DNA of 64,000 nt from Escherichia coli O157:H7 (lineage in GTDB: Bacteria > Pseudomonadota > Gammaproteobacteria > Enterobacterales > Enterobacteriaceae): assembly GCF_013167455.1 (NCBI RefSeq), contig NZ_CP038328.1; one strand, written 5' to 3'. Positions 25,201 to 28,200 of the stretch are shown here, in pieces. Each line of letters opens with the position of its first letter. Position 1 is the stretch's first letter. Made by a program: the position numbers.

Positions 25201-28200
25201 GCAAAACTGACATAAATCTCCAGAGATGTGTTCAGGAGTTAGAAAGATTATTTCTTCTATTCTAGACAAATCCCCCTCTGATTGACAGCATCACTGACCA
25301 ATCGCAAAGATTGCTAAGGCTGCTTATGGCAGGGAGATAAGGATGGTCGATACAGAAATTTGGCTGCGTTTAATGAGTATCAGCAGCTTGTACGGCGATG
25401 ATATGGTCCGTATAGCTCACTGGCTGGCAAGACAGTCGCATATTGATGCGGTTGTATTGCAGCAAACAGGGCTTACATTGCGGCAGGCACAACGCTTTCT
25501 TTCATTTCCGCGGAAGAGTATCGAAAGCTCACTTTGTTGGTTGGAGCAACCCAACCATCATTTAATCCCTGCGGACAGCGAATTTTATCCTCCTCAACTT
25601 CTGGCGACGACAGATTACCCCGGTGCACTGTTTGTTGAAGGAGAACTGCACGCGCTGCATTCATTTCAGCTTGCCGTAGTGGGGAGTCGGGCGCATTCAT
25701 GGTATGGCGAGCGATGGGGACGATTATTTTGCGAAACTCTGGCGAAGCATGGAGTGACAATTACGAGTGGACTGGCGCGTGGAATCGATGGTGTAGCGCA
25801 TAAAGCAGCCTTACAGGTAAATGGCGTCAGCATTGCTGTATTGGGGAATGGACTTAATACCATTCATCCCCGCCGTCATGCCCGACTGGCTGCCAGTCTG
25901 CTTGAACAGGGGGGCGCTCTCGTCTCGGAATTTCCCCTCGATGTTCCACCCCTTGCTTACAATTTCCCACGAAGAAATCGCATTATCAGTGGTCTAAGTA
26001 AAGGTGTACTGGTGGTGGAAGCGGCTTTGCGTAGTGGTTCGCTGGTGACAGCACGTTGTGCGCTTGAGCAGGGGCGAGAAGTTTTTGCCTTGCCAGGTCC
26101 AATAGGGAATCCGGGAAGCGAAGGGCCTCACTGGTTAATAAAACAAGGTGCGATTCTTGTGACGGAACCGGAAGAAATTCTGGAAAACTTGCAATTTGGA
26201 TTGCACTGGTTGCCAGACGCCCCTGAAAATTCATTTTATTCACCAGTGAACCGCCCCGGGAATCCTGGAGACTAAACTCCCTGAGAAAGAGGTAAACAGG
26301 ATGACTAAAAATACACGTTTTTCCCCCGAGGTCCGTCAACGAGCAGTTCGTATGGTTCTGGAAAGTCAGGGCGAATATGACTCACAATGGGCGGCAATTT
26401 GTTCCATTGCCCCAAAGATTGGCTGTACACCAGAGACTCTGCGTGTGTGGGTTCGTCAGCATGAGCGGGATACCGGGAGTGGTGATGGTGGACTCACCAC
26501 CGCTGAACGTCAGCGTCTGAAAGAGCTGGAACGTGAAAATCGTGAACTGCGCCGCAGTAACGATATCCTTCGCCAGGCTTCCGCTTATTTTGCGAAGGCG
26601 GAGTTCGACCGCCTCTGGAAAAAATAATGCCGCTGCTGGATAAGCTGCGTGAGCAGTACGGGGTCGGACCGGTATGCAGTGAACTGCATATTGCCCCGTC
26701 AACGTATTACCACTGTCAGCAACAGCGACATCATCCTGATAAACGCAGTGCCCGTGCTCAGCGCGATGACTGGCTGAAGAGAGAGATACAGCGCGTATAC
26801 GATGAAAATCATCAGGTGTACGGTGTGCGTAAAGTCTGGCGCCAGTTGTTACGCGAAGGTATCAGGGTGGCCAGATGTACAGTGGCGCGCCTCATGGCGG
26901 TTATGGGACTTGCCGGTGTTCTCCGGGGTAAAAAGGTCCGTACTACCGTCAGCCGGAAAGCCGTTTCCGCAGGCGACCGCGTAAACCGTCAGTTCGTGGC
27001 AGAACGTCCTGACCAGCTGTGGGTGGCTGATTTTACTTACGTCAGCACATGGCAGGGCTTCGTCTATGTGGCGTTCATCATTGATGTGTTTGCCGGATGT
27101 ATCGTGGGGTGGCGAGTCTCATCGTCTATGGAAACGACATTCGTGCTGGATGCACTGGAGCAGGCGTTGTGGGCCCGTCGGCCGTCCGGCACAGTCCATC
27201 ACAGTGATAAAGGTTCTCAGTATATATCACTGGCCTATACGGAGCGACTAAAAGAAGCAAAACTGCTGGCATCAACAGGGAGTACAGGTGACTCGTATGA
27301 CAACGCGATGGCGGAGAGCATCAATGGTCTTTACAAAGCGGAGGTAATACACCGTAAGAGCTGGAAAAACCGTGCAGAAGTGGAACTGGCCACACTCACG
27401 TGGGTGGACTGGTATAACAATCGACGATTGCTGGGAAGGCTGGGTCATATCCCTCCGGCAGAAGCAGAAAAAGCTTATTATGCTTCCATCAGAAACGATG
27501 ATCTGGCAGCCTGAGTTCACAGATAAAACACTCTCCAGGAAAACCGGGGCGGTTCACCAGATCAGGAAGACGTGGCATTGCCATTTCCTGAGCTCCTGGC
27601 TAACGTAGGAGATGAGGTAACACCTGTTGACGTCGTCGCTGAACGTGCCGGCCAACCTGTGCCAGAGGTAGTTACTCAACTACTCGAACTGGAGTTAGCA
27701 GGATGGATCGCAGCTGTACCCGGCGGCTATGTCCGATTGAGGAGGGCATGCCATGTTCGACGTACTAATGTATTTGTTTGAAACCTATATTCACACAGAA
27801 GCTGAGTTGCGTGTGGATCAAGACAAACTTGAACAGGATCTTACCGACGCAGGATTTGATCGAGAAGATATCTACAATGCCCTGCTTTGGCTGGAAAAGC
27901 TTGCGGATTATCAGGAAGGACTGGCAGAACCGATGCAACTGGCCTCTGATCCACTCTCCATGCGTATTTATACCCCTGAGGAGTGTGAAAGACTGGATGC
28001 CAGCTGTCGTGGTTTTCTGCTTTTCCTTGAGCAAATTCAGGTGCTTAACCTTGAAACCCGTGAAATGGTGATAGAGCGAGTGCTCGCGCTGGATACCGCA
28101 GAGTTCGACCTGGAAGACCTGAAATGGGTAATCCTGATGGTGTTGTTCAATATTCCGGGCTGCGAAAATGCGTACCAGCAAATGGAAGAATTACTCTTTG

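Follow-up and report, generated by a model that had tools for sequence, protein, structure and literature searches.

The dprA gene of this Escherichia coli O157:H7 genome is interrupted by a complete IS629-type element that is flanked by a 4-bp CCAG target-site duplication, and the same interrupted allele is carried by a small sub-lineage of O157:H7. Very probably, an IS629 copy transposed into dprA in an ancestor of this sub-lineage; the processing of incoming DNA would have been impaired by the event, and the allele would since have been inherited as a near-neutral clade marker. The analysis was carried out on a stretch of 64,000 nucleotides of contig NZ_CP038328.1, hereafter the window, together with public E. 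coli genomes and assemblies.

Results

A complete IS629-type element splits dprA after codon 301

The 5' part of dprA (25343-26246, + strand) was delimited by open reading frame listing, Pfam and the PGAP annotation. It comprises codons 1-301 and the first base of codon 302, which include the coding sequence for the SAM and Rossmann (RecA-loading) domains. Directly behind it lies a 1310-bp IS3-family element of the IS629/IS1203 group (26247-27556, + strand), which is followed by the 3' part of the gene (27561-27781, + strand), codons 302-374, encoding the winged-helix domain and parted from its own start. Direct reading of the sequence placed identical CCAG copies against the two termini of the element, at 26243-26246 and 27557-27560, and the duplicated bases correspond to codon 301 (CCA) and the first base of codon 302. 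When 25343-26246 was joined to 27561-27781, the result was an open reading frame of 1125 nt, 374 codons plus a stop, with zero internal stops; with both CCAG copies retained the dprA frame is broken. In the interrupted gene the frame continues into the element for 9 IS-encoded codons (VNRPGNPGD) and ends at a stop at 26273-26275, giving a 310-aa product. The original prediction was accurate for this locus: the extent of the element with its intact orfA and orfB and both inverted repeats was reproduced at every coordinate, as were the abutting CCAG copies, the insertion point after codon 301 and the stop-free 374-codon gene that is regained on removal of the IS and one CCAG copy. RefSeq annotates dprA here as a pseudogene accompanied by an IS3-family transposase, with the PGAP label 'DprA, missing C-terminus'.

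IS629 is co-oriented with dprA and, as had been claimed, with the genes downstream of it. These are smg (DUF494; 27753-28226, + strand), which is intact by a full-length match to NCBIfam NF002897, and yrdD, tsaC and aroE (28255-30197, + strand), all of them intact. The start of smg overlaps the final 29 nt of dprA, and we infer that translational coupling of full-length dprA to smg is lost in the dprA::IS629 allele. The copy in dprA is the only one of the element in the window (n = 1). An Rfam scan of the whole window returned the expected RNAs only.

Structure and relatedness of the inserted element

IS629 is an IS3-family copy-out-paste-in element. The ends of the copy in dprA read TGAACCGCCCCGG...CCGGGGCGGTTCA (TGAACC...GGTTCA), and the left terminal inverted repeat (IRL, 26247-26271, + strand) agrees with the reverse complement of the right one (IRR, 27532-27556, - strand) at 22 of 25 positions, the terminal 13 bases matching throughout (13/13). 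Both the length and the ends are those of the IS3 family (1.2-1.5 kb, imperfect inverted repeats, 5'-TG...CA-3'), and so are the two consecutive, overlapping and uninterrupted reading frames, orfA in frame 0 and orfB in frame -1. OrfA (26301-26627, + strand; 108 aa) is the HTH part of the transposase (positions 1-86 of the NCBIfam IS3 transposase profile; Pfam HTH_Tnp_1). OrfB (26627-27514, + strand; 295 aa; Pfam rve) is the DDE/rve catalytic part and matched positions 93-369 of the IS3 transposase profile NF033516 (NCBIfam), scoring 312.9 bits where the cut-off is 160. A full-length ALIL pseudoknot, which stimulates -1 programmed frameshifting, was detected at 26582-26698 (+ strand; Rfam RF01497; 120.9 bits, gathering score 50), and the A6 run at 26619-26624, just 5' of the orfA stop and the orfB ATG, is likely to be the slippery site. 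The predicted OrfAB fusion of 404 aa carries the Pfam rve domain of a DDE (rve) transposase, and the joined CDS in the PGAP annotation is marked 'programmed frameshift'. The 4-bp CCAG duplication falls within the 3-4 bp of the IS3 family, and at the other insertions in dprA the duplications are 3 or 4 bp long.

Over 1310 bp the element shared 99.5% identity with a sequence named 'IS629 transposase' (JQ347801). Its identity was 95.4% both with the 'insertion sequence:IS629' of VT2-Sakai (AP000422) and with 'IS1203v' (AP005154). The names are those given by the depositors, and none of the three is the Shigella sonnei prototype. Sub-types of IS629 lie 4-5% apart (PMC3271280); seen against this spread, the identities to depositor-named copies are consistent with membership in IS629, the name used in the original prediction. 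Copies that are 99.8-99.9% identical occupy other sites in many O157:H7 genomes, and the element in dprA, being structurally intact, is probably still mobile. That K-12 has no IS629 and that the element is typical of O157:H7, both stated when the locus was first read, is backed by the literature: IS629 makes 3-4 bp target duplications, is absent from K-12 and is present in ~20 copies per O157:H7 genome, where strain-specific insertions serve in typing (PMC3271280).

The insertion removes only the winged-helix domain of DprA

The 374-aa protein encoded by the spliced gene matched the DprA equivalog NF008007 with 707.7 bits (cut-off 495) over residues 1-374, and TIGR00732 with 295.9 bits. Its Pfam domains are SAM_SMF (1-65), DNA_processg_A (Rossmann, 68-274) and DprA_WH (311-357). 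By the full-length equivalog match and the presence of SAM, Rossmann and winged-helix domains, the product of the rejoined flanks is a DprA (Smf) protein, as had been expected. The cut at residue 301 lies in the linker between the Rossmann and winged-helix domains. The 310-aa product retains SAM and Rossmann, and the predicted loss of 73 C-terminal residues takes away the winged-helix domain and no other.

In Helicobacter pylori and Vibrio cholerae, this domain recruits ComM and is needed for efficient transformation; Gram-positive DprA proteins are without it (PMC12012524). Since only this domain is lost and the SAM and Rossmann domains are kept, the earlier statement that the insertion inactivates dprA needs qualifying, and it is from the H. 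pylori and V. cholerae data that we infer a loss of function. A hypomorphic or separation-of-function allele would be as likely as a null. Should the truncated 310-aa protein prove unstable, dprA::IS629 would be a true null; alternatively, the protein may suffice fully for RecA loading. Within the 3' fragment, 12 nt past the end of the IS, there is an in-frame GTG at 27572 that is preceded by AGGAAG; separate translation of the winged-helix fragment from this codon would be speculative.

The allele marks a small O157:H7 sub-lineage

A search for the junction covered 5,426 complete E. coli genomes. The same junction, 100% identical over 2439 bp, was present in three of them (ECP19-598, 17B6-2 and G5295), which are independently assembled, complete O157:H7 genomes, all from the USA. 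The window is identical to these three over 50-64 kb but for one SNP (46937, in acrS), whose allele in the window was found in no complete genome. Among public assemblies, the exact 310-aa fusion protein was recovered on 65 contigs and in 111 index blocks (~100 further assemblies). Sakai, EDL933, EC4115 and TW14359 matched either the IS alone or dprA without the IS.

These data identify dprA::IS629 as a clade marker of a small O157:H7 sub-lineage rather than an error of assembly. Among O157:H7 the allele is rare, yet it is stably inherited in a clade of roughly 100 sequenced assemblies. On an evolutionary scale, the view of the insertion as recent agrees with its presence in only 3 of the 5,426 complete genomes and with the undecayed dprA frame; the allele has nonetheless been passed on stably within the clade. 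No paper in the literature was found to connect IS629 with dprA in O157:H7, the sole match being an IS1203 case in ST302.

IS629/IS1203 elements have entered dprA repeatedly

Other lineages were found to have at least 12 further independent insertions of IS629/IS1203 in dprA or smg, in either orientation; in all, 15 other complete genomes carry such insertions. Seven to eight of the independent events fall within nt 101-192 of dprA, in unrelated lineages and in both orientations, and were made by IS variants that differ by at most 5%. The corresponding segment of the window (25443-25535) has no insert. Single nucleotides were re-used exactly, nt 101 twice, nt 173/174 three times and nt 192 twice, and the clustering at nt 101-192 with this exact re-use had P ~1e-4. 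When the 14 target sites were all oriented relative to the IS, no shared sequence consensus was visible among them. That the first ~200 nt of dprA (25443-25535) are a site-specific hot spot for IS629/IS1203 transposition is a reading to which we give a little less than an even chance. If true, it would mean a strong local target preference of the IS629 group, set by DNA structure or a bound protein, would contradict the published view of IS629 as having no target specificity, and would make the recurrent knock-out of dprA in E. coli a by-product. Of the whole analysis, only these position-exact recurrent insertions at the 5' end of dprA are potentially new, and they would bear on target choice in the IS3 family.

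As a control, the non-essential yhdZYXW region (4154 bp), with the same IS placed in the middle of the query, was searched alike. The IS was found there in + orientation in 10 genomes and in - orientation in 179, with several distinct sites in yhdX alone. The general background of IS629/IS1203 insertion is thus high, and dprA is enriched a few-fold only, as measured against this single control region. Because the background is high, neither selection for dprA loss nor a strong enrichment at the level of the gene is claimed. An apparent co-orientation bias in dprA, seen in 6 lineages in the first search and taken as a hint of selection for downstream expression, was rejected as a search artefact: that search joined pieces on one strand only, and a query with the inverted IS added 9 genomes of opposite orientation, after which no bias was left.

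Strong polarity on tsaC is unlikely

Of the genes behind the insertion, tsaC is essential. The original prediction had considered that the element might be polar on these genes or might supply an outward promoter, and neither idea fared well. A consensus scan of the + strand gave no promoter-like site in 25100-28900, and the terminator search within the IS gave only weak terminator-like hairpins, in no excess over shuffled sequence; these scans led us to reject both a terminator inside the IS and a promoter, outward or hybrid, at its right end. Strong polarity on tsaC appears unlikely, because the at least 12 other independent insertions in dprA/smg occur in both orientations. Their spread over many lineages in either orientation argues that tsaC is independent of read-through from the dprA promoter.

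Discussion

We propose that an IS629 copy transposed into dprA in the ancestor of a small O157:H7 sub-lineage, and that transposition duplicated the 4-bp target CCAG and split the gene after codon 301. The 5' fragment would then give a 310-aa SAM and Rossmann/RecA-loading protein with 9 IS-encoded residues at its end, and the handling of incoming single-stranded DNA is expected to be impaired, not necessarily abolished. In E. coli the competence pathway that depends on DprA is cryptic and under Sxy/CRP-S control, so the allele is probably near neutral and would be inherited as a clade marker; dprA is a member of the Sxy/CRP-S competence regulon (PMC1635313). Expression of smg, yrdD, tsaC and aroE would proceed independently of dprA translation, by transcription that reads through the co-oriented IS and/or starts at promoters lying 3' of the insertion. 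Excision could in principle restore dprA, given the intact CCAG duplication and the general presence of the IS-excision enhancer (IEE) in EHEC strains. IEE acts on IS629 in EHEC O157, and IEE-promoted excision of IS629 with restoration of the interrupted gene has been documented (PMC9397093, PMC9943667, PMC9330008). The allele is kept in ~100 assemblies, so excision, if it occurs, has not removed it.

Other explanations were weighed against this one. A repeated IS could have been misplaced inside dprA during assembly or scaffolding, given that IS629 is present in ~20 copies per O157:H7 genome, that short-read assemblies break there and that many draft contigs end in the IS. However, the 4-bp duplication is perfect on both flanks, the junction is identical in three independently closed genomes, and dozens of draft contigs pass from dprA to the left IS end at one and the same nucleotide; such an error is practically out of the question. 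It is rather unlikely that the split gene still works and the insertion has no functional consequence, the 310-aa SAM and Rossmann protein being sufficient and the winged-helix domain perhaps being made from GTG 27572. The position of the cut in the linker, judged by domain boundaries, would suit this reading, as would the natural lack of the domain in Gram-positive DprA (PMC12012524) and the in-frame GTG with AGGAAG ahead of it 12 nt after the IS. Against it, the winged-helix-ComM interaction is reported to be critical for ComM recruitment in both Gram-negative models (PMC12012524), translation of the 3' fragment is speculative, and the protein may lose stability through its 9-residue IS-encoded tail and the absence of the domain.

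We regard as very unlikely that the insertion is adaptive, that is, that loss of DprA or an IS-driven change in smg-yrdD-tsaC-aroE expression has been selected in E. coli. Such selection would agree with the number of events (in 5,426 genomes, at least 13 independent IS629/IS1203 insertions in the 1125-bp dprA and a further one in smg), with the otherwise intact state of all interrupted dprA alleles and with the persistence of the O157:H7 allele in ~100 assemblies. Yet the yhdZYXW background is high (10 and 179 genomes) and leaves dprA enriched few-fold only, selection for a lost function does not explain the re-use of exact nucleotides, both orientations are seen, so that a consistent promoter effect downstream is not expected, and the allele is rare within O157:H7.

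Ancestral transposition followed by near-neutral inheritance remains our preferred explanation, and dprA::IS629 is a real but ordinary mobile-element polymorphism that is annotated already. The finding is of small weight: IS629 polymorphism is a well-described driver of micro-diversity in O157:H7, the gene is a pseudogene in RefSeq, and the competence pathway is cryptic. Its junction cleanly marks one O157:H7 sub-lineage (three complete genomes, ~100 draft assemblies), and it offers a natural DprA allele that lacks the winged-helix domain only and is usable to test the DprA-ComM recruitment model in E. coli. Taken with the at least 12 other dprA/smg insertions, it speaks for tsaC being independent of transcription through dprA.

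The element is the same as that of the IS629/IS1203/IS1203v polymorphisms of EHEC and O157:H7 (1310 bp, orfA/orfB with a -1 frameshift, 3-4 bp duplications), and the dprA site is not among the 47 sites of four reference genomes in the O157:H7 IS629 catalogue. In E. coli ST302 strains F2_18C/F2_81, dprA is likewise hit by a co-oriented IS1203 with a 4-bp duplication (GTGG; PMC6985150). That event is independent and belongs to an unrelated lineage; it lies at nt 650 of dprA, inside the Rossmann domain, so that it gives a clear null, and its IS variant differs at 75/1310 positions. The lacZ::IS allele of STEC O121:H19 (PMC9397093) is alike in having an intact IS3-family element with its duplication in an undecayed gene of an EHEC background; IEE-promoted excision restores function from this configuration, and at dprA it could do so in principle. 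The Gram-positive DprA proteins without a winged-helix domain, and the winged-helix mutants of H. pylori and V. cholerae DprA (PMC12012524), are close parallels of the 310-aa product in architecture. Here, in contrast, truncation has produced this architecture in a Gram-negative system of the ComM type. Because the winged-helix domain is reported to recruit ComM in such systems, the truncated protein should be defective and not native-like.

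An intact IS629 copy interrupts dprA after codon 301

Direct reading of 25200-27900, the ORF list and a script bore out, base for base, the element of the original prediction, a complete IS629 within the competence gene dprA. The 1310-bp element occupies 26247-27556 and is single-copy within the 64,000-nt window. Its left end is TGAACCGCCCCGGGAATCCTGGAGAC and its right end is the imperfect reverse complement of this sequence; the terminal inverted repeats agree in 22 of their 25 positions, including all of the outer 13. Identical CCAG copies abut the left (26243-26246) and right (27557-27560) termini. 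The two reading frames, orfA (26301-26627, 108 aa) and orfB (26627-27514, 295 aa), overlap in ATAATG, right behind an A6 run. Counted from the dprA start at 25343, the duplicated CCAG corresponds to codon 301 (CCA) and the first base of codon 302. The dprA frame continues for nine residues into the element (VNRPGNPGD) before a stop codon at 26273-26275, so its product is 310 aa long. As predicted, joining 25343-26246 to 27561-27781 restores an ORF of 1125 nt (374 codons) without an internal stop; keeping both CCAG copies at the splice destroys the frame.

The element was then identified by profile and sequence comparison. Against the NCBIfam IS3-family transposase model, orfB scored 312.9 bits (cut-off 160; profile positions 93-369), and orfA covers positions 1-86. 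The RefSeq pipeline annotates a single joined CDS, 'IS3 family transposase, programmed frameshift', and for the 404-aa fusion the precomputed Pfam domains are HTH_Tnp_1, HTH_21 and rve. An Rfam search returned a full-length ALIL pseudoknot at 26582-26698 (120.9 bits; gathering score 50), an RNA that promotes -1 frameshifting in IS629-type IS3 elements. In a comparison with phage records in the databases, the 1310 bp showed 99.5% identity to the 'IS629 transposase / IS629 OrfA' element of phage JLK-2012 of O55:H7, and 95.4% both to the VT2-Sakai copy named 'insertion sequence:IS629' and to the 'IS1203v' copy in Stx2 phage II. Megablast against complete E. coli genomes found 99.8-99.9% identical copies elsewhere in many O157:H7 genomes. 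In O157:H7, IS629 sub-types lie 4-5% apart, IS1203 is treated as an isoform and target duplications measure 3-4 bp (Rump et al., PMC3271280); the same study states that K-12 lacks IS629. We would thus name the element IS629 from depositor-named copies and the literature.

The insertion removes the winged-helix domain of DprA

Once spliced, the protein matches DprA over its full length (NF008007, 707.7 bits, cut-off 495, residues 1-374) and has the Pfam domains SAM_SMF (1-65), DNA_processg_A (Rossmann fold, 68-274) and DprA_WH (311-357). Since the cut follows residue 301, the insertion lies in the interdomain linker and removes only the winged-helix domain. According to a 2025 study (PMC12012524), this domain is typical of Gram-negative DprA and missing from Gram-positive DprA; it binds the ComM helicase, and in H. 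pylori and V. cholerae this interaction is critical for ComM recruitment during transformation. In gamma-proteobacteria, the Sxy/CRP-S competence regulon includes dprA (PMC1635313). Our inference is that the truncated DprA probably still binds ssDNA and loads RecA but is uncoupled from ComM, so that the allele would be hypomorphic or separate functions and should not be taken as an established null. The interpretation that the element inactivates dprA is therefore supported, qualified in that the loss is limited to one domain. An in-frame GTG at 27572, 12 nt past the element and preceded by AGGAAG, opens the remaining fragment (27572-27781). Speculatively, separate translation of the winged-helix fragment from this GTG is possible in principle, and might restore translational coupling to smg.

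The smg start lies 29 nt ahead of the dprA stop, and the co-directional yrdD, tsaC and aroE come next; all four genes are intact. An outward promoter or a polar effect of the element had been proposed as possibilities. A consensus promoter scan of the + strand over 25100-28900 returned no promoter-like site, and the terminator-like hairpins in this interval were weak and no more frequent than in shuffled sequence, so that the scan supports no outward promoter and no strong terminator. The comparison across genomes is more telling: 15 further complete genomes have the same IS type within dprA or smg (6 co-oriented, 9 opposite), once at the smg 3' end, 60 bp upstream of yrdD. As all of them are sequenced isolates, the essential tsaC cannot rely for its expression on transcripts that start at the dprA promoter and run through the gene.

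The allele is inherited in an O157:H7 sub-lineage

With 25343-27781 as a megablast query, the junction was recovered at full length and 100% identity in only 3 of 5,426 complete E. coli genomes, ECP19-598, 17B6-2 and G5295, all O157:H7 from the USA and all annotated with a split dprA pseudogene and an IS3-family transposase. The window equals ECP19-598 positions 491634-555633 bar one base, and the same single base differs from 17B6-2 and G5295 (50 kb compared). The exact 310-aa fusion product occurs in 65 contigs and 111 index blocks of a public protein collection; many of these contigs are 20-50 kb drafts ending in the IS. The identical junctions and the recurrent fusion product indicate that the insertion is real and inherited in a sub-lineage, which has about 100 sequenced members. 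Across O157:H7 as a whole the allele is rare.

The element and its CCAG duplication are both intact, and the EHEC IS-excision enhancer (IEE) promotes IS629 excision (PMC9397093, PMC9943667, PMC9330008), which restored an interrupted lacZ in O121:H19 (PMC9397093). Precise excision restoring dprA would therefore be possible in principle. The allele persists in many isolates, so excision has not erased it.

Other features of the window

The sole difference from the three matching genomes, T for C at 46937, replaces Arg45 of AcrS, the acrEF repressor, by Cys; the residue lies in the N-terminal part of the protein. This acrS allele is absent from the complete E. coli genomes in the collection (best match 99.8%). 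On the - strand, acrF (42088-45237) carries two in-frame stops, codons 629 and 633, and the annotation of the matching genomes lists it as a pseudogene ('internal stop'); the AcrS-controlled efflux pump is thus probably defective in this strain. A lone, short prepilin peptidase gene (4787-5254, - strand; 155 aa) has bfr on one side and the rpsJ (S10) ribosomal-protein operon on the other; it may be what is left of a larger gene cluster for secretion or pili. A complete rRNA operon at 31454-36799 has the expected content (16S, tRNA-Ile, tRNA-Ala, 23S, 5S, tRNA-Thr and a second 5S); its 23S leader matches StyR-44, also as expected.

IS629/IS1203 insertions recur at exact positions in dprA

The IS ends were mapped in every locus retrieved, and IS variants and flanks were compared to separate independent events. 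At least 13 such events were found in the 1125-bp dprA, plus one in smg. Co-oriented insertions, with their target duplications, lie at dprA nt 904 (CCAG, the window's clade), 174 (AAG, O145:H28), 138 (TTG, CEA106S), 472 (TAC, 582) and 650 (GTGG, F2_81). Opposite insertions lie at nt 192 (CTT) in 14EC001 and in F1053, whose IS copies differ at 64 positions; at nt 174 (AAAG, PSS-12), 173 (AAA, 81EVA), 607 (CAC, 102651) and 11 (ATAC, 7784); and at nt 101 (TAT) in PSS-11 and GF66.2 and again in GPEC102, where the flank differs at 66 of 2900 positions. An apparent bias towards co-oriented insertions was rejected as a one-strand search effect, since an inverted-IS query gave the opposite-orientation insertions. 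Every spliced allele is an intact ORF, so all the insertions are young.

Seven to eight of the independent events, from other E. coli lineages and with differing IS variants in both orientations, fall in nt 101-192 (window 25443-25535). Sites were re-used exactly: nt 101 twice, nt 173/174 three times and nt 192 twice. Simulation gave P = 2.5e-5 for five event pairs at most 1 nt apart and P = 1.5e-4 for eight events inside 92 nt; with the two nt-101 events merged, the values were 1.5e-4 (pairs) and 8.7e-4 (span). The clustering and exact site re-use are thus statistically robust and point to a local target preference of IS629/IS1203 in the dprA 5' end, with no sequence consensus visible at the target sites. 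The window's own site, nt 904, lies outside the cluster.

Selection for dprA loss was considered against a single control region, the non-essential yhdZ-yhdY-yhdX-yhdW genes (37030-41183, 4154 bp), queried with the same IS placed within. In one orientation this control matched 179 genomes, mostly one O157:H7 clade (EC4115/TW14359) that shares one IS1203 insertion, and in the other orientation 10 genomes. At least three distinct IS sites lie in yhdX alone and others close by in acrF; in the window, yhdZ-yhdY-yhdX-yhdW and acrF are free of IS. These counts and sites indicate a high IS629/IS1203 insertion background. Backbone genes commonly carry insertions of this group, and the enrichment in dprA is no more than a few-fold over the single control region; selection for loss of dprA is not claimed.

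The dprA::IS629 allele is an ordinary, already annotated IS629 polymorphism, and the F2_81 event has been mentioned in passing for ST302 (PMC6985150); what is potentially new is only that, across E. coli, IS629/IS1203 insertions repeatedly hit the same exact positions in the dprA 5' end.
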